A stretch of DNA of 64,000 bases from Marsupella aquatica (taxonomy: Eukaryota > Plantae > Marchantiophyta), in contig OZ316893.1 of assembly GCA_973895155.1 (NCBI GenBank), positions 17,080,645 to 17,144,644 on the forward strand, in the 5' to 3' direction. The position numbers and the translations under genes are program-made. Below, piece by piece: positions 5,765-61,523 of this stretch. Below the pieces are notes generated by a model. That model saw only the letters and a program-made list of their open reading frames with translations. It had not been told where the DNA came from and did not search any database. How positions within the stretch are numbered: position 1 is the stretch's first letter; each line of letters starts with the position of its first letter.

Positions 5765-5885
5765 AAAATGAATAACCGTTGGTCCTTGCTTACTACTTCC
5801 TAAATACTCTTGGTTGACCTCTAGTTGACACTTCTAAACCTAAAGAAAAACTATAATATCGCCGGTGTAATTTTTATCGTTTACA

Positions 5886-24144: not shown

Positions 24145-24350
24145 CCACACCACACCACACCACACCAAGGTAGCCCACCAAGGACCAAGGACCAAGGACC
24201 AAAGTAGAGGACCAAGGTAGAGGACCAAAGTAGCCCACCAAGGACCAAGGACCAAAGTAGAGGACCAAAGTAGCCCACCAAGGACCAAGGACCAAAGTAG
24301 CCCACCAAGGACCAAGGACCAAGGTAGCCCACCAAGGACCAAGGTCCAAT
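24145..24350. repeat. compound tandem array (CACAC)n followed by GGACCAA/AGTAGCCCACCA units in the copia leader
   Basis: Direct reading of the sequence. Confidence 0.9.
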
Positions 24351-35310: not shown

Positions 35311-36038
35311 TTTTGAAGAAACAAGTCTTCACACGAGTTTGGAAATCCTAAAAATCCTCCTCAATGTCAAGGATGAGCAAAGCTTTGGTCTTTTCTGAAG
35401 AACTAAGGATCCGGGACTCGGGGACAGTAGGCATAACCTTAACAACAATTTCAGACATGAGGGAGGATGCAATTGACTTGACTTGCTCCCACATTGCCCA
35501 ACGGTGAAGCCAAAGCTTTTCACTATCTGAGAATTGACCTGGATGAAAGAACTTCTTCCGAAGCTTTGGACGACATTGCGCCTCTAGGAGAGTACATTGG
35601 AGTTTTGGGGATAAGGACATGACCCCAGTGAACTACCGAGCTCGATCAAGACCACAAGAAACATTTCCCCTTCCTTTGTGTGACGCCACCAGCACGGCTG
35701 GTAATGAGTAATCCGGCCTAATTTGTGTTGAGCACATACGGAGTGGGCTTAGTAGTCCGTAGTTATTAGCATAGCAACACAAAATTAGTTAGTAATGATG
35801 AATAGGACAAATTTAGTCAATAAAGAGCATTCACGCTCAGGCTGGTGGTGCGGCGCTGAATGTACCATTGGATTACGAGCTTGTTTTGGACGTCTACCTT
35901 GGATCCGTATAACTGATCCGAGAGGCGGCCCTCTGACACGCCCTGACTCGGACCTGCGGAGTGGCTGGTACACTGTAAGCGTGAGGGACTTGGCCTATCA
36001 GAAGTAGGCAGGGCCAATCGGTCGACACCCCACAAGGG

Positions 36039-36045
36039 TATAAAA
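36039..36045 (+). promoter_or_regulatory. TATA box upstream of the LTR-encoded ORF
   Basis: GGGTATAAAAGGC, conserved in copy 3 (minus strand, 60394-60400). Confidence 0.55.
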
Positions 36046-36095
36046 GGCAAGCCCTTTCCTGCCTTTGAATTGTCAGTTCACTCCTCGCGCCAGCT

Positions 36096-40673: not shown

Positions 40674-43600
40674 TGTGATGCCTAGCCAGGAATCACTAGG
40701 CCAATTTAAATGGTAAAGTCAGGAGTGTACCCTGGAAACACATTAGTGTAGTAACAAACACAGGGAAAATATAAACAATTAAGGGTGACTATGGAACCCG
40801 AGCCAAGGCCGGAAGTAAGGACGCCGGGGGAGGGAACACGGTTAGGGTTAGGGCGCGCTAAGTGTCGGCGGCTATGGGTAACCAACGGGAAGGAAGACCA
40901 GGCAAGGGGGGGTAAGGACCGATCGCAAGGAATGGTGGCTCATTTGCAAGCACAAACTAAGCAAGACGACTACGGGAGGCCAACTACTATCAGCTGCTTA
41001 AGCAAGCACTCGGGGTGGGAGCAGATACTAACTATCAACTCAAGAAGGGTATGAGCAACGTCAATCAAGTTGCTCATTTTTGGGGATGCCTGTTCGAACG
41101 GGCAACTGAGTACATTGGGACCTACAAAGACAAAGAATCAGATAGAGCAGCTCGAGAACGGCAGGAGCTCGCTTGACTATGGGAGCTGCAAAAGTTTACC
41201 TTCTTAGGAGGAGAACTCGTCAAGGCTGAATTCCTGTGGACACCTACTGGCAACAAGCTAGATGACCTTCTGTTTTGCGAGAACAGAATCGTCGACATCC
41301 GGGAAGCCATCAACCGCTACAACGACATACACTAGGAGTTGAAGGGTAGCACGGAGGGGTGGACGAAGGCAACCGTGCTTGGAGAAACATCCACGACAGC
41401 CGCTATGAAGAGGAAAGGGAACAACAACAAAGAGGCCACCCCTGCAAAAAGAACGAGGTCAGTGGCACCCAGGAAGCCAGCCGAGCAGGGAAGCAGGAGG
41501 CAGGGAGAAGCCAAAGAAGAAGAGGTCAATCCCATCAATGCCGTTCCAACAAGAGATGACACGTGGAAAGGCTGGGCGGCGACCCTCCCCAAGGAAGTGC
41601 AATTACACTTTGCACGTGAAGAGGATGCATGCTTTACGGCTATGTAGACTCGGAAGTACTAGGGCTTCATGGCCGGATCCGGCTTGGAAGCCTTCATGAA
41701 ATTACCATGGTTGAAGCCGGAGGTGCCGGATTCAGACTTATTAGAATTTGTGGGATCATGGGAGCCCGAGACCAATTCCACAAGGGTGTATGGGAAGGAT
41801 TTCTATCTCACTCCCCGGGTGATTTCCAAAGTGTTTGGCTTGCCAATGGGCAATAAGACCAAAGTAGATACTAGGAAGACCTTGCCAGACAAGGAGTTCC
41901 GGTCGTTTCCAAGGCCATCAACAAAGAATGGCTTCTTTCGAAACACCTGCACCAACCCGCACATCGGAGAGATGATCGATTTCTTGCGGGTAACCATGCA
42001 TTGCAACTTGCCAAGGCCAGAGATTGGCAAGGCACAGGTCTACCTGGTGGAGAGGCTAGACCCAAGCCGGGACTACAACGGGTACCTCCTCACCCAACTA
42101 AAGAAGATCTTGAAGGAGGAACAGCAGGTGATCGACATGGGAAGCGTGTCCCGACTTGGCTATCACATGCCGCTGTTGTGCCGGTATACCCGAAGTCAAA
42201 TCTTTGCCCCGGTACTTCCCTTGCAGGCAAGGGCACTAGAGGAGGTTTCGGAACAGAGGCCGATAGTAGAGAAACCCAACTAGCCTGATAGTCCTACAAT
42301 CAAGCAGGTGTTTAGGCCAAGGACGGAAGACTTGCAGATGCAACAACCAGGCATGCAGAATCTGCTGAAATTGTTGGAGAAGGAAAAGAGAACGGCAACG
42401 GCAACGGTACAAAACACTACTCCAGAAGTTGGCCTAAGCCGACTTACAAGGGAAAACCCCTTTACCGGAGCCAAGTGGAGAAGGAGGCCGGAACATGAGC
42501 CAGGGGTTCAAATGTATGTGGGAGCCTCAAGCCCCGAATCCGAGGGAGAGCAGCCTAAAGCTCTTGTTCGCGGTAAACAGAGGGAGAAGATAGCGTGGAA
42601 GCCGGAGGAGGAACCAGGACCCGTGAGCTGTGAGGCCATGTTCACAGCAAGACCAGGGGAGTAGCGGGGGGAGCTGGTAGTCCAAGCCGCGGAGGAGGCG
42701 ATGGAGGACTACGGCAATGATAACTTTGGCTACGGGTCGGACCATCATGTTCCAGGATTAAGGACAGGCTGTGGCCGGTTCATCCCCACGCTTCCAAGAG
42801 TAGTTTGAGGGGATCCCACCCAACAGAGCAACCCCGAGTCTCCCCCACCAAATGTCGCTCCCCTGAGCTTTGATGGAATAAAACAGATGGCACAGGACTT
42901 TCAAGAGCGACTTAGGGAGGAAGAGAAGGCAGCCCTGGCTAGGGAGAAGGATTTACCTAGGGGAGAATGGCCAGAGGACATCCAACGGCTTGCAGAAAGA
43001 CGAGGCAGCCCTCCAGCCACGATAGAAGAAATACGAAAGGCGGCTTGGGAACAAAGGCCGCGGTGGTTGATGCCGATGACTTCTACTCACTCCACCTATG
43101 CTAAAGAAAGAGCCATGGAGTATGGGGAGATGTGTGGGGAACTTGCGCTCAGCATCTTTGGGGAGGAGTTGGAGCAGGGAGATGTTGGAGAAACGCAGAT
43201 TGGAAGAAGCGGTGGCTTTGGAGAGAAGAAAGAAGGACGAGGTCATCCGACGACTTAGGGAGAAGGTAGCCGAGGCAGAGGACCTAAAGGCGGCCAAGAA
43301 AGCCCAAGATGAGCTGCGAATTAAGCGGCATGAGCTAAACATCATGCAGGGGCAACTAGATACCACTCAGTCGGATAATCAAATTATCAAGGATAAACTG
43401 ACTCGGACCCAAGGAGAGTTGGCTGATGCGATCAAGGAAAGGGAGAAGTGAAAGCGGGAGCTAAGGGACGCAAAGGAGGCCCACATAGCAGCCAACAATC
43501 AGGCCATGGCGGAGACCCAGAGAAGAGAGAGGGCGTTAAAGGGGGAACTTGAGGATATCCACAGAGCCCTTGAGCAGAAAGAGGCCAAGTTAGGGAAATC

Positions 43601-45408
43601 CTATCAAGGGATTATTGTGCTGCAACAGGAGCTTGCATCCCTGACGGCCAGCTTCAAGGCCGACTTGCGTGAGAAAGATGACCAACTCGATTAGACTTAT
43701 GCCAAGATGAATAAAATGGAGTCTAAGGTCGTAATGGAGCTCGACAAGGAGCTAAGAGCAACCCAGGAGGAGAGGGCTACCTTAAAGAAGGGATTGGAGG
43801 AAGCCCAAAAGGAACTGGAGGAAGCCCAGAAGGAGTTGGAGGAGGCGCAGAAGGACCTGGACAAAACGCAGGAGGAGTTGGAAGAAAGCACGAGGAAGAT
43901 GGAGAACTTACAACGGCGGCCCAACAACCAAACGGAGCGGCTAAAGAAACAAGCCGTAGTATTTAAGTGCTTGGCTTCATCAGTTCCAACTCCATTTGGG
44001 GCAACCAAGTAGCCAGGAGTAGTACTGGCCGAAGGACAAGCCGCAACACTTGCACCAGTGCCAGAGGTAGGTGGCAAGGGGAAGGGACTGGCCTGCCGAA
44101 ATAGGGAAGAAGAAGAAGCGGAAACCTTCTGGGTCAGGCAGTAATGCGGCTTCTCAAGCCGTCGTGACCAAGGAGGTAAACTCGGCACCAACCTCAAGCA
44201 AGGTCACGGCAGAGGATCCAACTGCCGGGCTAGAAGGCGGGGATGGCAAAGCCGAGGCCAGGACACTCAGTGATGAAGCCAAGGTACCGGATCCACCACT
44301 AGAGCATGTCGGGGAGGCCGTGGCCGTATTAGAGGCCGTGGCCGTATTAGAGGCCGTGGCCGATGCTGAGACCAAAGCCGAGGGTGGACCTGGTCAGGCC
44401 ACGGGTGAGTTGCCTGGGTTTGGGGCAGGTAATTTGTCAGAGGACGGACCTACAGCAATGGTTGCGGAGGAAGTGTTGGGGGCATCCATTGAGGATCAAC
44501 CACCGCTACCATGACGGTGGTGGAGCGCCGCTCCTTTTAAGGAGGGCGGACGTGGAGGGAGGAGGTGTGAGTGGGCAGGGCGGGCTCAGATCTCCAAGTT
44601 TAGAATTAGGACCAGGACCAAGAGGCGGCCCTGACACTTAGATGAGTGGGATTGCGGATCCACTGGTAAGAGCAACACTTGTGCTCCTGCCTCGCTTTAC
44701 ATAGGTAGATTACAGTTATGATAGATTAGGCTTACGCTGCAAGGAATTAGGCGGATCCACTGCCAGGATAAGTACCTGGGCAGCGGGGAGTTCAGGGCCT
44801 TCTTCCTTAGCAAGTTTTTAGTGCACCAGCAGGGCTGAGATCAAGTAGTAAAAGAAGCTCTCGGTTAGTTATACTATGACCCTTGTGTATATTCATGTTT
44901 CCTCATGCCTAAGAGATGAATAGAGTTGGCCTCACGGCTTAGTTCGCAGATCTTGTGTATGAGAAGTACTGTTTGTATGACAAGTGCATGGTACAATTCA
45001 GTCAGAAGGAGTCATTTTGCTATTTGTGTGTCGCATTAACTTGTTTGAAGATTGCCCACATCAACCAAGAGAAGGGATTAAGCAAGGTAGTAAGAGTTGG
45101 ATGTGTCGAGCTGAGAGAGGTCTTAGCGGCTTACCCAAGCCAGTTGGGGATCATTCTGGCGGCAGAATCCAAACATACCTAAAGGAAGATCAGGAGAGGA
45201 GGACAAGGGAAGGCATAGAAGAGGCCGACTACGTATCTCATGACCTGATGAAGGATCTGTCCAGTATATGTGTGTAAAATGTTAGTAGAGAGTTAGCAGC
45301 GTCCCATGCCGCTAAGCCGCGGAATCGGCCTTGCCGAGAGCAAAACCTGCGGGAATCGGCTTGTGCAGGGGGGTTTCTTGGGTTTAGGGAGCCATGGGAC
45401 GCACCACA
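40674..45408 (+). mobile_element. protein-coding solo LTR-like element, family Z (4735 bp)
   Basis: TGTGATGC...GCACCACA termini (7/8 inverted match) and perfect TSD TGTTG (40669-73 and 45409-13). No gag or pol inside. Confidence 0.9.
41339..44514 (+). pseudogene. LTR-encoded protein, family Z (multiple stops)
   Basis: LPW....EFV.SW......V.G..F.LT...I..VFGLP.G...NGF....C core, followed by a long coiled coil with (LEEAQKE)n heptads. Confidence 0.78.
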
Positions 45409-46180
45409 TGTTGCTTGAACATGCCCAGGGAGGACTTAGAGGCAATGAGGAGGGAATACCATGGAATGTCAAGTGACAACAAAGCGAGTCATATCTTTAG
45501 TCTCTTTGGGTGTAGAGAGGAGCAAGTCAAGAGAAAGGGACTTTTTGTTCAAAGGGACGTGTGGTTGGTAAGGATGCATTTATTAAAATGCACGGCTTCA
45601 GTACAACAAAGTATTATGACTACAAAAATCAATACAAAGCCGGTTGCACAATTGGTTTCCATGGAAATCAGGGACAAGGTAAGACACGATCAAGCACTTT
45701 GCACGCTCGCGCCTTGTTGGAGTCCATTTTAATCCAAAATGGGGAACCAATACCACCTCTTCCCTATGGTGGGTCCAATGGCACCGACACTATTGGATCT
45801 TTGAATTGAGCAGTGCTTGGATAGATTTTTCCACCTCCCCCTTCAGCCCATGGCCTAAGTTGAAAGACTTATCCATCCCAATGGTGTACTTCTGGTAGTG
45901 TTCCTTCCTTATGACTTCGACCTGGCTCCGCAATCCAGCTCGGCTAACCAAACTCCTCCGTACATAGGTGGAACCGGAACCGGTTTTGGATTCGGGGATG
46001 CTTCCTCCAATTGCAGGATGGACGGATCCCAGGAGACTGGTTTCTTATGCTTTGGTTTGTGTTTTTGGCTTTGGGCAGTTGTTTGGCCGGTTCCTGGTTA
46101 ATAGGTTCCGTATTGGTGGAGCCAGAATCGGTTCCCTGCTTAGCTGGAGCCGTGTCCTCCGTATTGATGGGCCGTTCTTG

Positions 46181-47992
46181 CTATTCATCTGCCGGGGCGC
46201 CAGAGAGGTTCAGGGTGGCTCCGTCTATAGCAACCTTTGGGTAATTTAGGAGATGCGTCTCCCGCGGGTTGCCTCTATCCCCAAAGACATCTTCCTTGGA
46301 CAGGGACAAAATGAGTTCAATCATGTCGAGCTCTTCCTCCTCCAAAGTCTCTGAATCATACTCCTCGGGTCCCTGTGGAGTCTTGCCCTGATAATCGTCC
46401 ACCGCCCATGATACCCGTACCGGGGGTGTCCCGAATCTTAGCTCCTTCTTGCCCCAGTCCATAACTACACGACCACCGTACAGCCACGACCTTCCCAAGA
46501 GGACCGGGTAAGAAGATGGTCGGACCGGCCTCATGACCAAAAAGTTTAGATAAAACTCCACACCTCCTACGAGGGTGAGAACTTTGGTGAGCGTGCCCAG
46601 GGGAAGTACTCTTGCACCATTTGCTAATCAAATAGCTTGGGCTGTAGTTTGATACGTGAGATACCCCCATTTTACAGATGTTTCCTCAGTCATAATATTG
46701 ACTCATGCTCCGCCATCCATGAGAACCATCTTGATAGTACAACTATTAATCTCGATCAAGATGTCCGGCGCTCCTAGGTCCTCGCAGATCATATTACAAT
46801 CCGGAGCTCCGACCCGTGGTAGCCATCTTCTCCATCGGCCCGTGAGCAACTCCCTTAGTTGTTGCCGATACTAGGGATTATTCTAGAGTAGTTGTCCTAC
46901 CGTTGCTGTAAATGGGCAACTCTTCACATCTTGTCAAATGTCGTATTCTTCCTTATTTTCTTCCTTTGGCTGTAGCTTAATTTTCTTTTGCTTCCCGCTT
47001 CTCTTGCTCTTCCCATTGCGCCGCCTCAGCTGCCTTTAGATCTTTATCGATTGCTTTCTTGTATTCCCATGCCTCGTATGCTTCCAACTGTTGTTTTACC
47101 AACTCTTCAATGCGAGGGTAGAATAGCTTTGGGTCATCCCGGTGGTAGTCGTTGTCCTTCTCCGGAGGTATTTCTACCGTTGGCTGCACTGGCGTGGTGT
47201 CTTGCTTATGTCGGCATTTCTCTTCGTGTTTCTCTTGCTTTCGTTTGGATCTGGTTGACACTCGATAACATTCGGCCTCATCCGACAGATTGGGGTGTTT
47301 CATCACATCGACCAAGTTGACCCACTTAGTGTTATCATCTTGCCATTCTACGGTGATCATTTGAACGACAGCATCGCTTGGAGCCGGTCCACCTGGGGCC
47401 AGCCGAGCCGTGCTCACTTGTGCTACGATTACCAACGGGCAATTGGTCATGGAATGAGCCTCCGTTTTGCACACTTGACATAGTGGCCTTGGCCATCTCC
47501 TTGGTTTCTTTGTTCTGTGCACTCCCTCGCAAAGTGACCGGGCTTCTCACAGTTGTAACAAACCGGGGATTGCCAAATCCCTGGTTTAGGAGTGATGCTC
47601 AGGTTACTTATCACTTGGAAGCCTCTGCCACCATTTGGGTATGGATACACAGTTATGCCAGCCAAATTCTGAGGACCCACCGTGGAAATCTGATACACGA
47701 AGTCAGGTGGTTCTTCAAAGAAATACTCCGTGGACTCCGGTTCTGGCCCTGGGCTGTCAACATCATCCAATTCCACCTGATGGACTCGATTCTTCCATCT
47801 TGGGCATTCCTGCACCACATGCCCCGATTGAAAGCATTTGGAGCACCACGCATGTGCTTGGGTTTTGGATGGCTTCTTCTTCTCCACGGGCTTCTCCGCC
47901 AGGTATACCGACAACGCTTTGAGGCGATCAGTGATTTCATTGAGCTTGTCGGTTTCAACGGCCTTAGGATCTGGCTTGATTTTCCCCTCCTT
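46181..47992 (-). pseudogene. gag: gypsy gag C-terminus (three zinc knuckles) and protease
   Basis: CSKCFQSGHVVQEC, CYNCEKPGHFAREC, CQVCKTEAHSMTNC, VLMDGGA*VNIM, YPVLLGRSWL. Confidence 0.85.
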
Positions 47993-48429
47993 TTAAATTT
48001 TATTTTTTTTTAAATTTTATTTGAAGTTTATTCCGCATGAACCCCACGGATGGGGGGAGCAGCAGGCCAAAAGGCAAAAAGGTTTTCAAGAGAAGTGACA
48101 ACAGCTGGGCAGAGTCAAGCCAGGTGCCTTGCCACTAAGCAAGATCATTCAATAGGCTACCCAATAACCCTGTGAGTGGGAAGCAAAAGTAAAGTAGCCA
48201 ATACCAGCCAAGCTAACAAGTAGCATTCCGAAGCCTGTAATAAGAATTTACAGGGAGTAAACAAAACAAGACCCTGGGGTGAGGGTCCTGCCCCCCGTAA
48301 ACCAGATATCAGTGACAAGCATCTGAGCCAGTAAACTAATGCAAACATGAGTAATCCTAATCAACACTCAGAAAGAGGTCAAACATCTCACTTTGCTCCT
48401 AATAATCCTAATTTGTTCCTGCACTAAAA

Positions 48430-51400
48430 TCTATTTCGCCTGTGTAACTCTGTAAAACTTATTCTTAGAACCAGTAGCAGTCGCCACTGTGGTCAGGTGG
48501 TCCAAAGTTTCGGAGATGGTAAGTATCTGGTTAAAAACTCGTTTTTTGCCAAGGTCAAACGTCTGATCATTACGTGCCTTCCAAATAGCCCACAGGATCT
48601 GATACATCAAAAACAGACGAAGCGTGCTCCGAGGGCTCTTCCTAAGCGATAAGGAGATTAATTCAACCAGGTTCTGATGTGGTTGAATGATTGTACCATT
48701 CAGCCAGCCCTGCGCTTCCCTTCAGCAGCGCTGTGCATGTCTGCATTTAGTGAAAAGATGAGGAATAGTCTCTATCATCCCAGGGCACAGAATGCAAATT
48801 CCATCTGACTTGGCAATTCTCATTGCTCTTGATCCAGAGAATAGTCCTTGTGCCAAGACCCGCCAGAGAAACATTTTTGCTCTAGTGGAAAGGTCTGTCG
48901 TCCAGATCAACAACCAAATCTTGCTCCATTCTTCATCGGTATGGCTCACTTCCCATATCCTGTTCAACCTGAGGTGATCCGTTCCTTTAGGCCTCAACAT
49001 TTCGTATACCCGCCAGTTGGGTAGGCCAAACTGCCGAATCCGTATGTCCTTGTCAGACCACTGCCATTGACAAGCGAGGGTATCAAATCCACTACCCAAG
49101 AAAATGGATCTGTGGACCACTCTGATCAGTGCAAGGCATAAGGTTCGGTCTCCATCGGTGAGGCCTCTCAATCGGTTCAGCCTAGTATCCAAGTTCCTCC
49201 AGTCATTCGTAGCAGAGGACCAAAAATCCCCAACCTTCCTGATTCCTAAGTTGCCACAAAGTCGAGTCACTGTCCCAATGGATGCCTCAGGCAGGTCATA
49301 GAAATCCTGAGAGCATCAAACTAGATCTTCCAGTATCCAGTGTCCAGGGATCGCATCCACCCCAGGGTGGAAAATCAGGTTTTCCCTAGCAAGTGCCCAT
49401 GCGCCCCAGAGTTGCCCCGTGTAAGTCAATTTCCCGAACGATCATGGTGAACCCAGTAGCATTAGATCTGACATAGAGTAGTGGTTCCTGCGTATAGATC
49501 GATAGTTTCTCCATTTTGTCAATCCCAAGTTTATAGCAAAGAGTTTCGCCCATTCCGTCTTTGGGTGATCCAACGCCCCTATGAACCACTTACAGAGGAG
49601 TGCATCAGAATGACTTCTGAAGTCTTTCAGGCCAAGTCCGCCAACATTCTTTGGCCTGCACAGCTTATCCCACGCCACAAGGGGTAACCTTTTACCCCCC
49701 GTCCTGTTGTTACCCCAAAGGAAATTCCTGCTTAATGCTGTCAATTTCCTAGCCAGTGCAGCCGGGGAGCGTAAAAACATCATATGATATATGGGTATAG
49801 CCTGCAAGACATGTTTAACATGCAAAAGGCGGCCCGTAAATGACAGAAAGTGTGAGGACCACGAAGACCGTCATGCGCTAATCCTATCCAGACAGAAGCC
49901 ATGTAACTGCGCTTCTGACAAGCCAGCTCCCAATGGAGCACCCAAGTATTTCTGCACCATTCCTGATTCACTGATAACACATCCCGTCGCTCTAAGCCAT
50001 CCAGGAATCTCCTCTACTCCCAAGGGGATAACAATGGACTTTTTGAGATTGAGTTTTGCTCCAGTGGCACATTCGTAAGTGTTCAATGTGCTTGTAGCCT
50101 GTTCGAATGCTAACTCCGTAACAGGGATGAATAGACCCATGTCATCCGCAAATAATCTAAATGAGATATTCAAGTCAGGAGTAATTTGAAATCCTTGTAA
50201 TCTCCCTGCCCTGATTTCCGCATTACAAAAATCCATTAGCGGTTGGGTCAAAATTGCAAACAATAGAGGGGAGAGAGGGCATCCCTGTCTCACCCCCCGA
50301 CTCAACTGAATATCTTCAGTCCAGATCCTGTTAACTAGAGCCTTGGAATTCGCATTACTTAGTAGCGACTTGACCAAGAAGATAAAATGAGACCCAGTGC
50401 CCAGTAGGTGCATTGTTTCCCAGATGTAGGAGTGATCCACTCTATCAAACGCTTTCTCGAAATCCAGCTTCAGGAATAGAGCCGGTGTATTCGTAATGTT
50501 AATCCAATCATTCATCAGCCAGGTAATGGAGTTATTCTCTAAAATATTTCTGCCAGGGATGAATCCTGTTTGTTGTGGGCAGATCAACTTAGAAAGCAAC
50601 GGTTTTAATCGTTGTGTCAGTAGTTTGGCAATAATCTTGTAAATGATTGTCAACATTGTGAGCGGTCGCCAATCCCCCAGCCTTTGTTTGTCAGTCTTTT
50701 TAGGAAAGAAACGAATGACTCCCTCCTTTATCTTGAATGCAAGATGTCCCGTACGCCAAAAATCAGCCACCATGGAGTGTAGATCCTCCTTTAAAAAATC
50801 CCAGCATGCGCGAATTCCCTCTGCTGTCACCCCATCAATCCCCGGAGCCTTGTCACATGGTAAAAGTAACAGGGTACAATGCAACTCCTGTATTGAGGGT
50901 AGAGCCTCTAATCTTCTGATTTCATTACTCGTAAGTGCAAACCGAGTATGAGCATAGAGTACACGTCGAGCGGTGAGCATATCTGATAGCGCCTCCTCTA
51001 AGAGGATCGGTGGTGAATATAGCTCCTCGCAATGTCTCTGCACCTCCTTGATTACTAGCCGTTCATCCCGAATCTCTCGTCCTCCTTCCACTACCAGGTA
51101 CTCCATGTTTTCCCTCTGCCGCTTTGCCTTGACAGTAGAAAAGAAAACTTGGAAGTTTCTTCACCCTGGCCAAGCCATCTGATCCGAGATAGACGTCGAT
51201 TGTGATGTGCCTCCTCTATCTCCATTTCACGTACACAATCCTCTGTATACATGAAATTCAAAGTGCAAGAGGATGAGTGATCCTCAACAATAGCCAACTT
51301 TAGCATTCATAGCTTATCCTTCATTAACAGCATCTCTTCCTCCCAAGGTAGGGGTGCAGCTTGTAGCTCCATATAGCATTTTCTTAGCCTTTGATATGCC

Positions 51401-52283
51401 AGTGTGAATCTCAGGTGCGGGTCCAAGGGAGGAATGTCAACCCCCCAAGCCCTAGTGAGTAGTTCTACATTGCCTTGTTTCCGTAGAACCGCAGGATTGG
51501 CCTTGAAATACGTCGCTCGCCTTTGGTCTGCTCCAGCCAGTATTGGGAGGGTAAATCTAAAAGTAAGTATCACCGGATCGTGGTCAGAAAGTGCAGATGT
51601 CCCATCGTGCAGGAGAGCCAATACTTCCCCCGTCCAACTCCCTTTTTCACTGAGATAGAATCGGTCTAGGCGTGACTGTATTAATCTGCCATTGCGAACC
51701 CTTCTCCAAGTGAATTTGGATCCAGTAACCTGACCCAAGATTCCAAACACATCTTGTAAGTCCAATCTTGTAGTAAGGAACCTCCAGAATTCTTTCTCTC
51801 TACCGCAAATCAAGGGGGAGGAACCAGTGGAGTCACCCCTTAATTCCGTCATATTAAAATCGCCACCGAAGATCCACCGATCCTGAGGCAAAGCATTCCG
51901 AAGATCATTCCATAGTAGAGTCCTTTCTCCAGTGGAGCAAGGAGCATACACACAGATTAAACCAAAATTTCCTTCAGTATGTTCTACTTGGATCCAGACC
52001 GCTCGGCCCTTATCCAACGTGCCGGATGTAAGCACTTTAAACAACGGGTGCAATAGAATGGCAGTACCGCCTCTGCCCGCATCCGGGAGAGAGTAAAAGT
52101 GTTGATATGTAGGTAAAATGATTTGAGAGCAATGTCCAATCTGAAACTGTCAGCCTTAACCTCTTGGAGCATCAGTGCATTGAGGTGAGGTCGGTTGGCT
52201 GAAACCCATTTAGATACCACAATTTTCCGATTTGGATCGCATAAGCCACACACGTTCCATGTGGCCACCTTGAAAGTTGTCAT
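48430..52283 (-). pseudogene. LINE ORF2 (APE endonuclease, RT, zf-RVT), frameshifted
   Basis: WNVCGL, GGDFN, SRLDRFY, SDH, LDFEKAFDRV, GVRQGCPLSPLLF, LFADD, CILC..ETIPHLF. Confidence 0.93.
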
Positions 52284-52348
52284 GAAAATTCAACTTAATC
52301 AATTAACCTCCCTGCTCCAGCCTAAGGCTAAATGACACCTCGTAGGAG

Positions 52349-54601
52349 TTAGACACTTTCCTGCAGGGAGCCCATCGAGGGCCCAGCAGGTAAAAGTAGC
52401 AGTGCCGCCTCAGGTGACCTTACCATAGCATTAGGATCAGGTGAAAGAATTGCTACCACCTCACAGGGGGAATCCAAGACATTCAGCATTACATCAGGTG
52501 ATAGAGGAGGAGCCTCAGTAGTGCCCGAAATCGTCAAGGCACCAATCGGGTGTTGCAGATCTCTTCTCGCTCGCCGACTGGGGGTGCTCCATCCATCATC
52601 ATCCTGCAAGTGGTGATCAGCAACAAATTGTAAGGCACGCTGATTCCTGGCCTTCTTTTTCCCCTTTTTCTTTTCATCCGGTGGGGACCGCTTAGCCAAT
52701 TTCCTGGCCCGATCCTTTTTAACCGTTAAATTAGAGATGAATCCTTCATACTCCAACAACTCCATGTCAGAGGGCTTCTCTAAAGACGACAGCCCATTGC
52801 CTTCTTCCATTTCCTCCGAGGTTTCCACATCCTGACGCGGTAGACCCGAATTCTCATCTGGCTCCGCAACAATGAGAGGAGTATCAACTGATCCTGTTCT
52901 AGTCAGGTCTTTTGAATTGTTCAGATTATCATTTAATATAGCCGAGGCATAGTGCATTGTTTGTAGGTTCTGCATGACCCCAGAGATAGCGGCGGCACCA
53001 GCCCGCAGGTGAAGAGCAATCACTCCCGCCCTTCCTTCATCCGTGCATTCATCTACTTCTCGCTCAATTACCACCGAAGGAGGCACCACATTCCCCCCCA
53101 TCGCACTCCCAAATAAAACAAAATCCCCGGCTCCATTCGCCGGTGGAGGCGCCCTGCTCGCAGTCAGAGTGTCACTCTTAGCAACAGGTGTTTCCTTGCC
53201 CACTTGATCCACCACGGAAGGGAGTGCATCCACTGTTGCAATAGATCCAGCGGGCACCGTGGCAAGAGCCAACGGTGGGGCAGCGTCCGGGGGGTCGACG
53301 GGTGCAATACTCACCGGCTCCACAGTCTCATGTAATCTGCAATCCCGAGCAAGATGACCTTTTTTATTGCACTTAAAGCAGTGAAACGGGATATTTTTGA
53401 AAATGATAGGCTGCCAAATCGAAAGATCCACTTTAATCCGGACCTCCACACTTTGTGGTAGCTCCCGCTGCGTATCCCAAAGAATACACACACGATCATG
53501 CGGATAAGTGCTCAAATCATCCCCTTGGGTGTAATGCAGTATATCTCCCAGAGAGGCAACCAGCTTGCGTCGACATGGTTCAAGAATAAGTGCCCGGAAT
53601 GGGATTTCTATCCACACCGGCAGCAGCGTAAAGGATTTGTTCTGAATGTCAAAAGAGGGATCCCAAGGGAAAGTAAACACATATTTCCGATCCAGAAACC
53701 AAGGGACCCCCTCCAATGCCAGGTCACGATGCTCCGGATTTTTGAAAGCCACCAAATAGAAGCTCTTCCCCACAAACTTTACTTGTGTCACAGGCCAGTG
53801 CATCTCCTTAACCAAGGTTTTCTCCACCCAGAATTTGAAGGTGGGTAGCATGGGAGCCCTGTCAGTAAAGTAGCACATCATGGCACAATTAAAGAGCTCC
53901 GTGACACTGACCGTTGCTTCCTCCAGGGACCATTCGATAGTCGTGTGCAGTTTAGATGGCCAGTCTTGAACTGAGAGATCCGCAATGCGCTTGAGTAAAG
54001 GAACACAGGCCTCAGCCGCCTGCTTGTTGGTCTCCACGGGTCTCCCATGTTCCGGAGCAACAGTCCTACCCGGAGTTCGCGCCACCGAGCCAGACCACTG
54101 CACAGCATTTGCATTCCTCCCCGCAGATTCCCCAGCAATTATTGGCTCGTCCTCCATTCTTTCCCCAATGTCGTCATTGAATCGCACCCCAATGTGTTGT
54201 GGCCTACGGCCTTCCAGCTCGTCCATCGCCAATCTCTCTATCTTCTCCCGATCCCAACGAGAGAAGCCATCGGAATTGTCACTAGAGGGTCGAAGCCCGA
54301 ACCAGCTCTGGGCCGCAGCAGCAGGCATGACTGAATAATTTTCCTTGACGCCATCAGGTCGATTCTCCTGGTTCTCCCTGGAGCGCACATCCTGTCCGGA
54401 ATACCTATGTTTCAATTCTTGACGGGATGTATCGTGGGAGGTGGACGCATGAGAATCATGTGTTGGTGGTTCCGACCGAGCAACAGGGTCAGCCCAGTAT
54501 CCAGCTCCACCTTCGGCATTGCGCCGGGAGGTCTTTTCTCTCAAAAGAGCAGGTCCAGCTCCATGACCATGATAGCCATAGTTGGGGCGGGTGTTCTCCA
54601 T
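52349..54601 (-). CDS. LINE ORF1 (DUF4283/RRM-like domain plus zinc knuckle), 750 aa
   Basis: PW..D...F..WDPSF...LPVWIEIP and CFKCNKKGHLARDC. Confidence 0.9.
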   Translation of the reverse strand: MENTRPNYGYHGHGAGPALLREKTSRRNAEGGAGYWADPVARSEPPTHDSHASTSHDTSRQELKHRYSGQDVRSRENQENRPDGVKENYSVMPAAAAQSWFGLRPSSDNSDGFSRWDREKIERLAMDELEGRRPQHIGVRFNDDIGERMEDEPIIAGESAGRNANAVQWSGSVARTPGRTVAPEHGRPVETNKQAAEACVPLLKRIADLSVQDWPSKLHTTIEWSLEEATVSVTELFNCAMMCYFTDRAPMLPTFKFWVEKTLVKEMHWPVTQVKFVGKSFYLVAFKNPEHRDLALEGVPWFLDRKYVFTFPWDPSFDIQNKSFTLLPVWIEIPFRALILEPCRRKLVASLGDILHYTQGDDLSTYPHDRVCILWDTQRELPQSVEVRIKVDLSIWQPIIFKNIPFHCFKCNKKGHLARDCRLHETVEPVSIAPVDPPDAAPPLALATVPAGSIATVDALPSVVDQVGKETPVAKSDTLTASRAPPPANGAGDFVLFGSAMGGNVVPPSVVIEREVDECTDEGRAGVIALHLRAGAAAISGVMQNLQTMHYASAILNDNLNNSKDLTRTGSVDTPLIVAEPDENSGLPRQDVETSEEMEEGNGLSSLEKPSDMELLEYEGFISNLTVKKDRARKLAKRSPPDEKKKGKKKARNQRALQFVADHHLQDDDGWSTPSRRARRDLQHPIGALTISGTTEAPPLSPDVMLNVLDSPCEVVAILSPDPNAMVRSPEAALLLLPAGPSMGSLQESV

Positions 54602-55296
54602 ATGTTACCAAGTGTAGCCAGGTCTAGAGGATTCAGCAATATACACCAATCTAGAGGCAGAAAGGGGCACTTAATAGGTGCAAGATTAGATCAAAAACAG
54701 AGGGTTGGCTAAAGTAGAAGCTTTCTGGACTTAGACACTAGAACAGATTACGTTCAAAGAGAAAGTTCTCACCTCCCCGCCCACAGGTCCACCCTATGAT
54801 GTTCGTTGATACAGACTTCTGTGCCGTGAATTCTTCTCCAGGGATAAATCAGCTCACCAATCGACAGCAGGTGCTATCAATAGAGCGCAGCGAGTCCCCA
54901 AATCTATAGCCTAGTTTAGCAGTTTCCCTATATCAGTCACTCTACATTGAGGTAGGATCACATCAAATCAGATTCTTCCACCACGCTCACATGCCTTATC
55001 ACGCAAACACTGCTTGGGCTCCCTTGATCAACTCCACCAACTACTTTAGGGTGGACAAAAACCGCGGCCGTGAACCTTGCACAGTGCCCTATTCACGTGA
55101 AAAAACCTCCGGCTTCCAAAATCCCCCCAGATGGTTCGATTGATAGCAGAATCACCTCCGTCTAAGAGATAAGCAAGATTAGAACATGAAAAAAACCATC
55201 CAATCGATCAAAAACCCGAGAGAAACCCAAACCCTAGTGCACCTCAGCTCCGTCAGTTCTCTTCTTCAGCTCCGTCAGTCCCTTGTCACCACTTCT

Positions 55297-56306
55297 ATTT
55301 TCCCCTCCTTAGCACGCCGCTTCTTCTTGCTCCAGGTCTCGCTCTCCGAATCACTTCCCGATGAGCTTGAGGTGGAAGAGCCACTGGTCGAAGTTGAGTC
55401 TGGACTAGACCCTGTCTTTGAACTGGACAAGGTCGAACACTGTTTCTTCTTTTTCTTACGCTTCTTCTTCTTCTTCTCATCGTTAGATTTGGAGTCACTA
55501 TCATTGAAGGTCTCGTACTTTCTCTTCTTATGTCATGCCCGTTGGCTTCGGCGGGAGTTATAGGTGGACTCCTTGTATGTTTCGGTGCACGCTATGGCTG
55601 CTTGCATTGAAATTGGGTTATTCTGGCGTACCCAAAATTGCATATTCATGGGCAAATTGTGGAGAAACCACGTAAGCTGGAGCGCATCACCTGGCATGGG
55701 CTGGATCTTGGCAACAAGTTTTTGGAACTTCTGAATAAATTTTTGCAAGGACTCCTTCTTTCCCATGCGAAGCTGACCAATCTTCAACAAGGAACGTTGC
55801 TCCGCTCCAATGGCACAAAACTCTTGTAGCAACGTAGCTTGGAATTGGGGCCATGTGATCCCAGGCGGTAGCGAGTTGTACCATGGACGAGCTTCTCCCC
55901 GCATTACTCCAGGGAGATTGGTCAGCTTAATGGCATCCTCTCCGTTGGCCTTAGTAGTGGCTTCAAACTCATCCAACCATTCATTCGGATCATCCCCATG
56001 ACGTCCTTTGAAAGGTCAATAATGAAACCGTGATCGCTGTGATACTTGTGGGGGAGCTTGCGCAGCGCGAGCCACAGCCGGAGGGGGTGCCACCATAGGT
56101 ACCGGTGGCGGTGGTGGCACTGGTGGTATAGCAGGGACCGGAGCAGGACCTGCTAGACTAGACCCCAAAGGTCCTGGTGGTATGTTCATCTGTCGAGGCA
56201 ATTGTGAGTCCTCCGAGCCTGAAGATTCAGAGTTTGTTGTGGTTGCACTCTCTCGTTCGCTTGTCAATCTCCTCAAGTATGCCGCTTGAGAACGAGTGAT
56301 GGGCAT
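55297..56306 (-). pseudogene. gag: gypsy gag N-terminal part
   Basis: MPITRSQ start. MRGEARPWYNSLP..ITWPQFQATLLQEF is a retrotransposon gag motif. Confidence 0.85.
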
Positions 56307-56402
56307 TTACTTGTACAAATGCAATGATTAACAACTATCAGGACCCCGGGTCCCGTGATCAGGTACATACGCACATGTCTCCATTCTACTATACGTAGAA
56401 TG

Positions 56403-56421
56403 CCCCCTCCATCTAGTGCCA
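56403..56421 (-). promoter_or_regulatory. primer binding site complementary to plant tRNA-Asn
   Basis: Minus strand TGGCACTAGATGGAGGG versus the expected TGGCGCTAGAAGGAGGG (2 mismatches; tRNA sequence from memory). Confidence 0.7.
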
Positions 56422-57336
56422 AAAACAAAGGCTATGTCACGCCAAAAGCCTTGTCCTTGTGTGGATTTTGGCTTTGACGGGCATAATCTTCATTAGTTTT
56501 GACGTTTTGGGCAAGGAGGGATGTGCAAACTAGACCTTATTCCCGCAATCTAGCGCTAAGTGCGCCTATTCCTACTTGTAAAAACGTCATTGGTATAGTT
56601 TGTGTTCCGCCACCGGAACATACCTTAAGTCGATAGCTGGATCGACCCCGGCTTAAGGGCTTTTAAGCCTTTGTATTGTCTGCCTCTGATCTGGATCCGA
56701 TGATATGGTTATCCAACCCGGTCTCGCAACCACTATCCATAGCCTACACCCCATGCATGGCTTGGATGATGCATTTGGCCAAGCATTCTCGATCTACCCG
56801 TATACGAGATTCATATAGGCAACTGAACTCACACACATACAATCTCGGTTTACACAAAGGAAATGGTGGGAAAAGACTTTACTTCAGAATCCGTCATACG
56901 CATACACACGGTTGACTCGACATCTCTTGAGTAGACAGGCCCAACGGCAGAGCGACGTACACTACAACGGAGGCCGGCTCCGCACTCGCCCAACGAGCTT
57001 AGTCGTACCCTCCCTCCATGGTATCTCCTACTCACAAAGGCCGGGACTCCCCGCACATCCTGCGGATACCCGGTTTTGAAACTAAAATCCTCCTTGCCTC
57101 TACTGAGGGGTGCACTAAATACTAAGAGCTGGGGTCCGGACCGACCACGTGCTCAAATCTAAGCTATCCCAGATTCTAAACTCTGCTAACTATTAGGCCG
57201 TAAAATGGCATGTCTTAATTCTAAGATCCTAACTACAAAGGTTGGTTGGATAGGACAGTGCCGCTAACTAGTTTTGGCGCTTGTCCTTATCGCCTGACTA
57301 TCCTATTTCTAACTCTATCCTACACCTATCCCGTTG

Positions 57337-60330
57337 CTAATGTCTGGCACGCTTGCTAGATCCGCCATAGTTGGATTTGGAGCGGCCATCCCGCTGTCTT
57401 CTGAGCCTATCGATGTCCTGCTTGAGGAGCTGGACCTGGTCTAGCAAAGATTTGTTCTCTCGCTTTGCCTCGTCCGTGTCCTCTACGGCTTCTTGGCATG
57501 CCTCCTCCAGTTGCTGGGCGTCGCTCGTCAGCTTGTCCACCAACTGGGCCTGCTTTGAGGCTTCTCCTTGAAGCCGTGCCACTTCCGCTTTCAGGACGTC
57601 TATCTCGGCTGTATCCCGCTGGGCCCGAGCGTCGGCCTCCTCCACATCCTTTTGCCAGATGACGGCTTGTCCCTTCAAACCGTCAATCTGGGTTTGGAGC
57701 CGTGCAATCTCAGCATCCTTCCCAACTCCGGTCTGCTCTACTAAGGATGCCCGGGCCCTAGCTTCGGCCACCTGATCTTCAGTGGCCACTACCTGAGGTC
57801 GCAGCTGTTGGAGTTTGGTCTCTTGGGCTGCCACTTTGTCTTTTAGGTGGGTAGACTCAACCCAATACCGCTCTATCCTCTGCGTAGCCTCAGCCTGCAC
57901 ATGACCTGCTCGCACGGCCGTGACCAACTCTTGGTTGAAGAAGTAGGCCACCTTTCGTGCCATGTACTCCCCGGTATCCCGTGCAATTTGTTGAGAGAAG
58001 TCTCCCAGCAACCCATTCAGAAACGTGCCTGGTGCAAAGAGTTCCGGGTAGTCCAGACTATGTCCCTCCAAATTCGGGCAAGGACAGACCTCAGCCCACG
58101 CAGGAGTTGGAGTGGAGACATCCAGCCCTTGAGGTATGACGGTAGAGGGGGTTGGGTTCACTAGGGCTGGGCGGTTCTCTTGAACAGCCGTGGAGGGTGG
58201 CGGGATCCCCTCTGCCACTGTCATCTCAGGCTTGGGTCTGGCCTTTGCCAACCCGGCTTCAATCGCGGTGACCCAGTTGATCGCGTCCAGGGTCACGATA
58301 ACCGCATCTTTGGTTACATTTGGAGGGGCGGCAGCGGTTGCTTGCGGGGCCGGGGTAGTAGGGCTTACGGCCGCCAGACTTTGGGCCTCAAGCTGAGGTC
58401 GTCTCTCCTGGGCTGGGAATATCCACTTTGATGGGGTCAGCTCGGGCTTGTTGATACGAGGGAGGCTTCGACGGTCAAAATGGGTATACCACTCGATGAT
58501 GATCTTGATGTGGCTAGCAAAGTAAGCCTTTCTGCCAAGGTACAAAGTCTTCCTTCTCCGCTCCATCTCCTTGTGGAACTTCTTGACAAAGGACGCCCAC
58601 TTCCTAGGCCGGTAGTTCTCAACTTGTATGACCTGGGTGACGGATATTTTGCCCCTTGGTTCCATCATGTGGAGGGCGTAACGCTGGAACTCCAGTCGTT
58701 CTGCTACCTCCGGGATGAGGCATGTCCTCATCAAAAATCCGTTGTCCACTGCCCCCTTGGCCGAGAAGCTAGAGGACTGATACTTGGCTCCCTTGCCCCC
58801 GGGAGCCTATGATTCTACCCGATTTAGTCCTTAGGGTAGGCCAAAAATCATCTTAAGACGTGCCTCATTGAGATACATCACTCTCCTGTGCACCCCAGGT
58901 TTGTTGGCAGGCCTCGTCAAAGTTCTGGATGAACTCCGTCACGTCCTGCCCATAGTACCTGCTCCCATTCCAAGGGAGAGAGGCGAGGTGCTCAAACCCT
59001 TGGGTCTTCCAGAAGCATGCATGCTTGGGGTGGAGGATGTTTTTGTGGACATTCTCCCCCATGCGATGCATGGTCAGCTTGGCCACTGCAACTGTGGCCA
59101 AAGGCAGCCAGATACAGCTGCGGGTTCCTTTCTCTTCCTACCCCGGGACTGGTTCGGGGTATTTACAAACGACAGGAAATAGCAAACAGTAATAGGAAAC
59201 AACAAACAGTAATAGGAAACAGAAACTGGTAACAGGAAAATGAGTGGTAATTTTTTTGAATTTTTTTTGAATTTTTTTTTGAATTTTTTTGTTGTTGGAA
59301 AAAAACATTTTTTTTGAATTTTGAATTTTTTTTGCTAGCGCCCAAAGCTAGCCAAAAAATGTTGTAATTTAATTTTTTGTGGAAAATGTGACTTTTTAGA
59401 AAATATTTTCACATGGTTATTTTTCCTGGTAACAATAATTTTTTGCTGGTACCAGTAAACCTGTTTCCTGTTGATTGTCACGCATGCCATACCCACTGGT
59501 TCCCGGGGTGACTGGAAGAGGGGGACATTTCCCCATCCTCTCTATCGGGTGGCGGTAGTGCTACCACCGTAAGTATTGGTGCGGGGCCGCTACAGTCACC
59601 GTGTTATCCCCTCGGCCTTGTGGGAGTGGCGTCGGGTTGCTCGGCGCATGTTGATTTGGACCTCGCGGCCGCCGGTTCAGGGGAGGGTGAGCCTCCTCGT
59701 CTTTGGAACTAATGTTCACCGCGTTTACCACGGATCGCACCAGGAGGGGTGGTGCGACCGGTGGCGGAGATCATCTTGGCTGAGGCCGAGGTGGTGTTGG
59801 CGTGGGCACCAATGAGTTGGCGCCGGTTGTATCTAGAGGAGGCGCCATAAGATTCAGGAAACTTGTGGGGAAGCTGAGTGAGGTCAGGATAAGCGCTCCA
59901 CCCGTGGATGCGGTACCAAACTGGTAGTCTATGGAGGCCTGGACTTTGGCGGGGATGTGATCGAAGTGGTGTCGTTGTAAGTCGATCGTGCCCGGGAGTG
60001 TGAAGACCTTATCGGAAGCCAAAGGAGTGCCTCCTGGAAACCAACGTACTTTAGGCCGTCGAAGAAGTATTCGGAGATCTCATCGGGACAATAGAGCTCG
60101 CTCTGGAACGGGAGGCTGAAATCTCCATTATAGTGAGAGCGCCCGGCCAGATGGATGAGTCATTTGTACTGCCTTTCGGTTTCGTACCAGCGCGGATTGA
60201 CCTCGGCTAGTGACTTCGCTAAATGATTTCCGATGGATAGAAATTGAAGCCAAAACCGAAGGGCAGAACTGGACATAATAGTGACAGACATATAGGGGAA
60301 AGGCGGTGGATGACTAAAGAGCAGATGAGT
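57337..60330 (-). pseudogene. LTR-encoded protein, family X; intact 470-aa C-terminal ORF at 57337-58749
   Basis: ORFs 59771-60022, 58865-59101 and 57337-58749 match copies 1 and 2. Confidence 0.82.
59157..59494. mobile_element. 338-bp MITE, MULE-like
   Basis: GGGTAT...ATACCC termini, inverted subterminal ACAGGAAA motifs, and 9-bp TSD ACTGGTTC(G/C). Absent from copy 2. Confidence 0.82.
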
Positions 60331-61353
60331 GAGCTGGGATCAGAGCTAGCGCGACGGGTGAAGTGCTGGTGCTTCGCGAGAGAATGGCCCGCCTTTTATA
60401 CCCTGAGAGCTCATCGGCCAAACGGCCCCTTCCTCCTTTTGATAGGCCAATCCTTTCACGCTTGCAGTGCACCGGCCACTCCGCAGGTCCGGGTCAGAGC
60501 GTGTCAGCAAGCCTCCCCTTGAGTCTTTATACGGACCCGAGGGGACCTCCCCACACATCTGAAAACCCGGGGGTACGAATGGCGCTCCGTCGCCAGCCTG
60601 AGTGTAAATGTTCCTTATTGACTAATGATGTCCTAGTTGTGATTACTACCTACTTTAGTGTCGTTATGCTAATTATTACGGACTACGATGTCCATAGAGC
60701 GCGTGCTAATCATGGATTAGGCCGGATCACTCATTAACCGCCGTGCTGGCGGCGTCACAGGTGATGTTGTTGATAACATATTCTAACAAAGGTTGGGAAG
60801 ATTGAAAAATAAATATGGACTTAGAGAGGGATCTCAGAAAAAATTTAAAAACATTAAGAGGGGGTAAAAATAATCTTAAAGTTCAAAAATACAAAGGATA
60901 CACCTTGTCTAAAAAAATCTGAAAAAAACTTTAAAAATCTCTATAGTACAAAATAACCTCAGTAGGCTCCCCAACAAAGTAACAGTCACCATAGAAATAA
61001 CTCTAGTAATGACTCTAATGGACCAAACACTTTTCTTTTGCCACCCAAATAACCCATAGGTGTAGGAAAAAGTTGCCCCCCAAAAAGCTGTCAAAGCAAA
61101 TTTTGACATACTTAAGGGGAATCTTCACACAAAGCAAAGGTATGCTATCTACCAAAATCTACATCTATAATATGGAATCTTGCCACTATTAGTCCCTTGT
61201 TCGCTTACAAAAAACACAAAAGGCTGAATCAAATTGTAGCCGTTCATTAAAAAATTAGATTTTAATCACCATCGGATGATCCAAAAACCACCTTAACTCC
61301 CCCCTCATTGTCCATTAGTGGTCCTGCAGGCATGCGGAAGCTACCAATGTGTT

Positions 61354-61523
61354 AGTGAATCTTAAGTACAATCTAGGGGTTCATGTTCTACTTATTAGTC
61401 TCTCTTGTGTAAGTGAATCTTAAGTACAATCTAGGGGTTCATGTTTATTTATTAGTCTCCCATGTCTAAGTGAATCTTAAGTACAATACAGCGGTTCATG
61501 TTCTACTTATTAGTCTCCCATGA
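61354..61523. repeat. three tandem copies of an approximately 57-bp unit
   Basis: AGTGAATCTTAAGTACAAT...GGTTCATGTT...TTATTAGTCTC, three times. Confidence 0.9.

Follow-up and report, generated by a model that had tools for sequence, protein, structure and literature searches.

Can the long terminal repeat (LTR) of a plant retrotransposon hold a complete gene, and what would such a gene do? The question is raised by a 64,000-nucleotide stretch of the liverwort Marsupella aquatica (contig OZ316893.1, positions 17,080,645 to 17,144,644; hereafter, the window), where a unit of about 4 kb with a long, broken reading frame (hereafter, copy C) lies directly in front of a gypsy-type gag gene. A first interpretation made from the letters alone (hereafter, the sequence-only reading) had taken this unit for a gypsy LTR with a gene inside, possibly one for an anti-silencing factor. 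In our analysis the frame is a real gene under purifying selection, and we are confident that it resides in the LTR. Its core domain is predicted to have a fold like that of VANC21, the anti-silencing protein of the Arabidopsis transposon VANDAL21.

The unit in front of gag

The unit and the element parts that follow it are listed below, with coordinates of the window.
56435 to 60759, minus strand: copy C, a giant unit in the LTR position, TGTGACGCC...GGCGTGACA, 4325 bp including an insertion that resembles a miniature inverted-repeat transposable element (MITE)
56404 to 56421, minus strand: sequence resembling a primer-binding site (PBS), TGGCACTAGATGGAGGGG, after a 13-nt spacer from the end of copy C
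55297 to 56306, minus strand: 5' part of gag (ATG at 56306) up to a long interspersed nuclear element (LINE), with PF03732, PF19259 and a 14-bp duplication
46181 to 47992, minus strand: second part of gag, with a zinc knuckle, and a protease-like region, past the LINE

Copy C reads along the minus strand, from TGTGACGCC at 60759 to GGCGTGACA at 56435. Its termini are TG...CA, with short inverted ends that match at 8 of 9 nt, and because 339 bp belong to the MITE-like insertion, copy C proper measures about 3.98 kb. The claim of a unit of this size before a PBS-like site and gag thus holds in all its parts. The PBS-like site is putatively of the tRNA-Asn type. In the Pfam scan, the gag behind copy C matched PF03732 (E 6.1e-7) and the Ty3 capsid (E 8e-5), and the zinc knuckle beyond the interruption matched PF00098 (E 3.2e-9). 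The protease-like stretch was recognized by tblastn through another gypsy pol in the window (E 9e-12). Within the window only gag and this stretch were found for the element of copy C, with no reverse transcriptase by tblastn; a stretch near 45900 that looked like one by eye gained no confirmation from the same search. The LINE that interrupts gag (47993-55296, minus strand) is apparently full-length, with a 751-aa first open reading frame (ORF1) and a broken ORF2, and its 14-bp duplication lies at 55310 and 47992.

Public contigs from four runs of two studies, one of them possibly the source of this assembly, were used to see whether the two ends of copy C recur. Loose contig ends fall exactly at 60759 with low agreement (0.36-0.41) in all four runs (17/72, 37/193, 21/92 and 33/151 contigs). 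The 5' end of copy C is a sharp boundary of the family, beyond which the flanks vary in 108 public contigs. At the other end, a 1-nt length variant in the spacer between the unit and the PBS (56421) is present in 4, 5, 4 and 3 contigs of the four runs, so other copies have the same junction of end, spacer and PBS. One contig connects a 3' end of the copy C type to a different flank within gag. Contig depth drops sharply past about 60760; such depth is no measure of copy number.

Four further relatives of copy C lie in the window, and every one is matched by the core profile of the protein.
5886 to 8271, plus strand: copy A, a 3' part with an intact core domain, ending in GACGTGACA with no PBS behind
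35679 to 39096, plus strand: copy B, its 5' start shared with copy C but set in different surroundings; it has no MITE and is missing its 3' end
17218 to 21055, plus strand: copy D, a lone 3838-bp relative with TG...CA termini and TCTGT on each side
40674 to 45478, plus strand: copy E, a distant 4805-bp relative, TGTGATGCC...GTGACA

Copy A shares its last bases with copy C, and its 5' part was removed by another gypsy element. Copy D sits in the integrase frame of a copia element (14702-23146, minus strand), and its 5-bp target-site duplication gives the pattern of a solo LTR. The ends of copy E are uncertain because its flanks do not match. The gene therefore stands before a PBS in copy C, before an end with no PBS in copy A and within a solo-type unit in copy D, which fits an LTR-resident gene. 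Together with the shared junction, these positions support the proposed gypsy lineage with a gene in its LTR, and the unit of copy C probably represents the LTR of such a Ty3/gypsy lineage in a liverwort. A frame of 360 codons (39530-40612, plus strand) lies between copy E and the truncated end of copy B; it contains an internal repeat, has no Pfam match and is possibly part of a DNA transposon.

The sequence-only reading had itself named two arrangements that would speak against it. The first was an element with short LTRs and the frame inside. No short terminal direct repeats were found in any unit, either by blastn self-comparison or by local alignment against shuffles, and in copies A to D no purine tract precedes an internal TG. 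Nor is the ORF enclosed by direct repeats of the kind that mark non-autonomous LTR elements (the TRIM and LARD classes). An old internal LTR duplication found no support within any unit, as the 5' and 3' non-coding parts of each unit are dissimilar (z 0.2, 1.6, -0.4 and 0.9). The 5' part of copy D does resemble the 3' parts of copies C, A and E (z 2.8-4.0), which probably reflects a common TAG-rich composition. The spacer can pair with sequence just inside the LTR end to form a hairpin (56422-56459, minus strand), with an energy that is not significant (z -0.89).

The second arrangement was an independent element with terminal inverted repeats beside the PBS. In its broader form the unit would be a separate mobile cassette, non-autonomous or a TG...CA transposon moved in trans, that came to abut PBS and gag by insertion or rearrangement. 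Only one end of the host element lies in the window, no polypurine tract was seen, the PBS spacer is 13 nt, and three of the four relatives are truncated or have no duplication, all of which a cassette would explain. A cassette is also favored by two Riccia sorocarpa gene models (P0063 and P0066) in which a DDE Tnp4 fragment is fused with a distant copy of the core domain, so that the domain can adjoin DNA-transposon genes; they hint that it also rides on, or adjoins, Harbinger-like elements. Against this stand the flanks of copy C, TCACC and TAGCC, which form no target-site duplication, and the recurrence of the junction with its length variant in four of four runs. The inverted ends are just the 9 nt given above, the non-coding parts at the two ends are dissimilar, and no transposase family was matched in the unit. 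We regard a mobile cassette as improbable.

Several observations nevertheless weigh against placing the gene in an LTR. Neither the window nor the public contigs showed an intact element flanked by two copies of the unit, no shared polypurine tract is readable in the mixed loose contig ends at 60759, and 13 nt is a long spacer before a PBS. The solo evidence comes from relative D, whose core is about 33-44% identical to that of copy A, and not from the family of copy C itself; copy E has no matching flanks, and all five copies in the window are broken.

The gene and its conservation

The gene and its parts are as follows.
57337 to 60291, minus strand: LTR-resident gene of about 868 codons (ATG at 60291, stop at 57337)
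59930 to 60291, minus strand: N-terminal domain of about 120 aa, common to the liverwort homologs, of no known family
58474 to 59080, minus strand: core domain with a predicted VANC21-like fold (profile matches; model of the copy A core)
59156 to 59494, no strand: MITE-like insertion of 339 bp with an 8-bp duplication, GAACCAGT, specific to copy C

The gene encodes, in order, the N-terminal domain, a linker, a basic patch, the VANC-like core, a Pro-rich linker, a coiled coil and a basic tail. The disrupted sense-strand frame first described, with its N-domain, GRKRKE patch, core, Pro-rich linker, coiled coil and KRARH tail, is present in full. In copy C it is broken by four premature stops, four frameshifts and one insertion. 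Copy B does not have the insertion, contigs in four of four runs skip it (347 nt, with 8 letters that fit both sides), and contigs add one base at two of the frameshift sites; these lesions are therefore private to copy C. The AT-rich segment 59156-59494 was also considered as an intron, which its inverted ends and 8-bp duplication ruled out. Its inverted ends begin with GGG(G)TAT, and high contig depth suggests an abundant MITE-like family.

The ratio of nonsynonymous to synonymous substitution rates (dN/dS) between copies was about 0.2 and not about 1, the value at which the idea of a gene had been expected to fail. It was 0.206 for copy C versus copy B (545 codons, 95% bootstrap 0.16-0.27) and 0.203 for copy C versus copy A (435 codons, bootstrap 0.15-0.27). 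These pooled values exclude two N-terminal segments, at 0.52 (partly out of frame) and 0.45 (linker), and the segment 58893-58810 (0.12 and 0.17). The core gave 0.094 (versus B) and 0.075 (versus A), the N-domain 0.187 (104 codons, 0.09-0.37), one linker 0.45 and the linker between copies A and C 0.53. The upstream non-coding part gave 0.76-0.89 and shifted frames of the pooled segments 0.65-4.2. The frame of copy C is a real gene under purifying selection.

Homologs were sought with a HMMER profile among 1.84 billion protein representatives, which returned 81 matches at E<=0.001 and 39 at E<=1e-10. Word-index protein searches, restricted to longer proteins, found no homolog, and an alignment search found one protein. 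The 20 homolog clusters looked up include five from Calypogeia fissa, two from Riccia sorocarpa and one from Orobanche minor (the weakest), and 12 come with no organism. Proteins CAM6086213.1 and CAM6082161.1 are examples of the Calypogeia fissa homologs. One homolog, P0097, is intact at 906 aa and has both N-domain and core; its parts are colinear with those of the gene as far as the DGRS...KRAR tail, and over 492 columns it is 29% identical. A tree built from the 44 core rows that reach 140 residues groups it with copies A and B (support 99/95). Related loci were not found in viral and metagenome contigs by peptide patterns, nor in metagenome and prokaryote contigs by a DNA pattern, and Rfam gave no match at threshold. 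Among the public runs containing the sequence no RNA run was listed, a result with no bearing on expression.

The predicted core and the families it resembles

A first model of the core from 8 sequences was unusable (predicted local distance difference test, pLDDT, 40). The model of the copy A core, which is 76-83% identical to the core pieces of copy C, was built from 74 sequences and reached pLDDT 96 and a predicted template-modelling score (pTM) of 0.91 over 206 aa. Foldseek placed VANC21 on its target DNA (9LNJ) first in the PDB (E 0.015, probability 0.99, TM 0.58), and the next match followed at E 1.9 and TM 0.16. A Foldseek-independent search (VIA) of 48,161 chains also gave VANC21 first (9LNK; Z 7.9, root-mean-square deviation 4.1, 194 of 206 residues aligned), with the runner-up at Z 2.3. 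Viral structures gave no convincing match (best E 0.01, TM 0.24), and a search of the PDB by sequence gave none. The VANC21 match extends over the entire domain, is set off from all others by a wide margin and is consistent with the links found by sequence, and we predict a VANC21-like fold for the core. The guess of an anti-silencing factor, made before any structure had been compared, gains real support from this predicted fold.

By sequence, the nearest link leads to Transposase_32 (PF20167). This family was matched by 3 of 80 homologs (best E 4.6e-7), each below threshold, with a best score of 30.3 bits against a gathering threshold of 45 (homolog P0070). DUF1985 was matched by 1 of 80 (E 8.1e-5), again below threshold, and PMD (PF10536) by 0 of 80. 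In a profile of the 47 strongest rows, the Transposase_32 bridge P0070 scored 50.2 bits (best of 50 shuffles 3.8) and P0045 scored 83.1 bits, and by such profile comparison the core is transitively homologous to Transposase_32. An atlas search returned unnamed streptophyte clusters first (0.91-0.92), followed by leads to DUF1985 and PMD at 0.89, and gave no match for the N-domain. The lead to PMD consists of this atlas value plus the common VANC fold. DUF1985 is reported to be a VANC domain (PMC5735166), and VANC is described as structurally homologous to the PMD protein MAIN (PMC13547354).

The prediction is tempered by several facts that count against it. The VANC21 match is moderate (11% identity, in addition to the E value above), and its Z lies just below 8, a range in which VIA cautions that a common arrangement may be reflected. 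The window proteins matched no informative Pfam family, only weak coiled-coil models; none reached the Pfam threshold for Transposase_32, DUF1985, PMD or DUF287, and the DUF1985 bridge P0078 scored 20.4 bits (E 28) on the 47-row profile. A common fold also proves no function, and host proteins of the VANC fold are reported both to silence transposable elements (TEs) and to oppose Polycomb (PMC5418596; 10.1101/2024.09.27.615353).

An LTR-resident gene could accordingly have another job, as a transactivator with no chromatin effect, a self-repressor that keeps copy number down, a factor for integration targeting or RNA export, or in the role of an Athila-type extra protein. Its nearest sequence relative, Transposase_32, belongs to an Athila extra ORF described as being of unknown function (PMC11728184). 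MAIN and MAIL1, of the same structural group, are reported to be required for TE silencing (PMC5418596), and the TTAG clusters considered below are not clearly family-specific. On the other side, the core matched a single solved structure, that of an anti-silencing factor bound to DNA, with 194 of 206 residues aligned, and a core with a coiled coil is also the layout described for VANC21 (PMC13547354). No enzyme or transmembrane family was matched in the homologs or the window proteins. Some such other function is a possibility we take seriously, albeit the less probable one.

The likeness to VANC21 (VANDAL21, a Mutator-like element; PDB 9LNJ/9LNK) extends over nearly the full length of the predicted core and includes the coiled coil, the encoding of an accessory gene by the element and possibly dense short motifs of one orientation in non-coding DNA, as reported for VANC21 (PMC5735166). 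The differences are that the gene here is carried by an LTR retrotransposon, in whose terminal repeat it is placed, that an extra N-domain is present and that identity is 11%. Most of the named relatives are from liverworts, unlike the VANCs, which are described as dicot-specific (PMC13547354), and binding and demethylation by the LTR gene product are putative roles. As the gene is carried by a gypsy LTR and not encoded by a VANDAL element, its product could work like a VANC, as we predict, and yet not belong to the VANC family.

Among gypsy elements, the extra ORFs of Athila (Transposase_32/ORF-1), Ogre (PMD) and Retand (Transposase_28) are reported as accessory genes that likewise combine a globular domain with a coiled coil (PMC6317226, PMC7264820, PMC11963269, PMC11728184). 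These elements share with copy C a profile link to Transposase_32 and large LTRs, reported up to about 5 kb, and the supplement of PMC6317226 gives a tRNA-Asn PBS for 12% of Athila and 15% of TatII elements. Those extra ORFs are described as internal, unlike the present gene, which lies upstream of the PBS, in the repeat, and is kept in a solo unit; the Pfam thresholds are missed here. The host PMD proteins MAIN, MAIL1 and MAIL2 are described as structural homologs of VANC (PMC13547354) and are reported to act via DNA motifs against Polycomb silencing (PMC5418596; 10.1101/2024.09.27.615353). They are angiosperm host genes, and their link to the core is the atlas lead of 0.89 and the common VANC fold.

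Signals in the repeat and a possible mechanism

Three candidate signals lie in copy C.
60388 to 60403, minus strand: TATA-like GGGTATAAAAGGC at +360, about 110 nt ahead of the ATG; candidate gene promoter
57037 to 57336, minus strand: TTAG cluster with 10 same-strand sites, including TAGTATTTAG at 57124
56845 to 56890, minus strand: AGTAAA and TGTAAA, candidate poly(A) region (R/U5 border)

GGGTATAAAAGGC is present at +360 in copies C and B and absent there in D and E. After the stop codon, TTAG occurs 10, 11, 11, 7 and 8 times per 300 nt in copies C, B, A, D and E (for E, 44600-44899), with 1.0 expected. The reverse-strand word occurs 0-1 times in these segments, and 0 of 300 dinucleotide shuffles attained the TTAG counts. 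In a scan of the whole window, such clusters were found only after the gene, plus one at the 3' end of the LINE. TAGTATTTAG occurs four times in the window, once each in A, B, C and D, and these are homologous and not independent occurrences. The cluster after the gene is a candidate array for protein binding or a candidate second promoter. VANC21 is reported to bind YAGTATTAY motifs and to require them dense and of one orientation in non-coding DNA (PMC5735166), and the analogy between them and the TTAG clusters is suggestive only. The poly(A)-like motifs lie 449 (AGTAAA) and 420 nt (TGTAAA) before the end of copy C, and in copies C, A and D they fall in the range 409-449 nt.

These signals have weak sides that tell against the functional interpretation. 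The TATA box is found in B and C only. The TTAG segments were picked after the profile had been viewed and contain no longer consensus. Clustering at the LTR start is weak, as 5-45 of 300 shuffles equal it, and TAG-richness is also a trait of a gypsy LTR elsewhere in the window (4014-5885) that is unrelated to the lineage.

The interpretation that we favor, and whose whole chain we hold to be evenly balanced between true and false, is that a VANC-like anti-silencing gene is maintained within the LTR of the gypsy lineage, with U3 as its probable location. The upstream TATA at +360 would drive the gene, and the poly(A) region of the LTR itself would terminate its mRNA. Every LTR, whether 5', 3' or solo, would with its own TATA and poly(A) form a transcription unit complete in itself. 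The genomic RNA would begin at a second promoter close to the TTAG cluster; this would place the gene in U3, make R short and leave gag as the first long frame. The basic patches would bring the protein to the nucleus, the VANC21-like core would bind short repeated motifs in the LTRs of the element itself, and the coiled coil would oligomerize the protein on the motif array. Binding would free the LTR promoter of host silencing marks, which may be DNA methylation, as for VANC, or trimethylated lysine 27 of histone H3 (H3K27me3). Polycomb repressive complex 2 is reported to deposit H3K27me3 on TEs in bryophytes (10.1101/2022.10.24.513474), and MAIN/MAIL proteins are reported to oppose this mark (10.1101/2024.09.27.615353). 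It is plausible that the gene arose from an Athila-like extra ORF beside the 3' LTR, which would have been enclosed once the start of plus-strand synthesis shifted upstream.

The placement in U3 has a competitor that is compatible with the same function, namely a single promoter at +360, with a short U3 and the gene in a giant R of more than 3 kb. Transcripts polyadenylated in the 5' LTR would then serve as the gene mRNA, and those that read through as genomic RNA. Canonical TATA boxes occur in copy C only at +229 and +360, with none past the gene, and the position of the poly(A)-like motifs, about 430 nt short of the end, suits this arrangement too. It would, however, require a strong-stop DNA some 3.6 kb long, and gag would have to be translated downstream of a frame of 868 codons; moreover, after the stop there is a conserved non-coding block with the TTAG cluster and TAGTATTTAG, as a second promoter would have. 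We put a giant R at a clear minority chance.

Other elements of the window stand apart from this lineage.
4014 to 5885, minus strand: unrelated second gypsy LTR, 1872 bp, TGTAAACG...CGTTTAACA, then TTTT and PBS-like TGGCGACCATACTGGGG

This LTR has its own gag-pol below 3091. In its 5' part, a sense frame of 133 codons (5833-5435) is free of stops and precedes a TATAAA near 4825; it has no Pfam match. By eye, the frame resembles a fragment of an oligonucleotide/oligosaccharide-binding fold like that of replication protein A, and it may be a second LTR-resident gene. Between 8265 and 13107 lie further frames with no Pfam match (8265-9212, plus strand; 9972-10685 and 11824-13107, minus strand), likely the remains of DNA transposons; the first has a C-x-C-x-H pattern that looks like a SWIM finger by eye. 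Short tandem arrays occupy 24164-24362 (13/27-nt units), 30069-30539 (about 43-nt units) and 61344-61522 (58-nt units).

Outside the liverworts, two systems resemble the arrangement of copy C, the rice elements Retrosat2/RIRE8 and the sag gene of mouse mammary tumour virus (MMTV). MMTV sag is much shorter than the copy C gene. It is described as a complete gene within an LTR with its own LTR promoter, and as a retroviral superantigen that acts on immunity, an unrelated protein (PMC9412291). Retrosat2/RIRE8 are reported to have LTRs of more than 3 kb, near-same termini (TGTCACACCC...GGGCGTGACA) and an ORF0 before gag-pol; as described, this ORF0 lies upstream of gag-pol and apart from the LTR, and the likeness implies no homology (PMC3485330). 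Each ingredient is known separately: gypsy elements with internal extra ORFs, LTRs that measure 3-5 kb, Mutator-like elements that encode VANC, and retroviruses with a gene in the LTR. In titles and abstract openings, with subscription journals mostly outside this coverage, neither a plant retrotransposon with a full gene in its LTR nor a VANC-fold protein in bryophyte retroelements was found, and the element table of PMC6317226 could hold some of the former.

The element unites a gypsy accessory protein, a predicted VANC21 fold and placement in the LTR, and it gives the Transposase_32/PMD class of extra ORFs a testable function. Standard annotation masks LTRs as non-coding, so LTR-resident genes are easily missed. 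Solo-LTR formation, usually viewed as a host purge of element genes, would leave such a gene whole. Sequence-specific anti-silencing proteins are so far described from the Mutator-like DNA transposons of dicots (PMC5735166, PMC13547354). More speculatively, and in our view doubtful as yet, liverwort gypsy LTRs may be VANC-type anti-silencing cassettes, each with gene, promoter, terminator and target array, and solo LTRs among them would still act in trans; taken jointly with such a system, and at the same tentative level, the five diverged copies may represent three or more families of an old lineage with relatives in Calypogeia and Riccia, which would place the fold on retrotransposons long before the angiosperms. 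The finding bears on whether the fold arose in retrotransposons or in a host gene, a question described as open in PMC5418596 and for which a host origin is proposed in PMC13547354. If the interpretation is true, gypsy LTR elements would be a candidate source of both VANC and the MAIN-like genes of the host.

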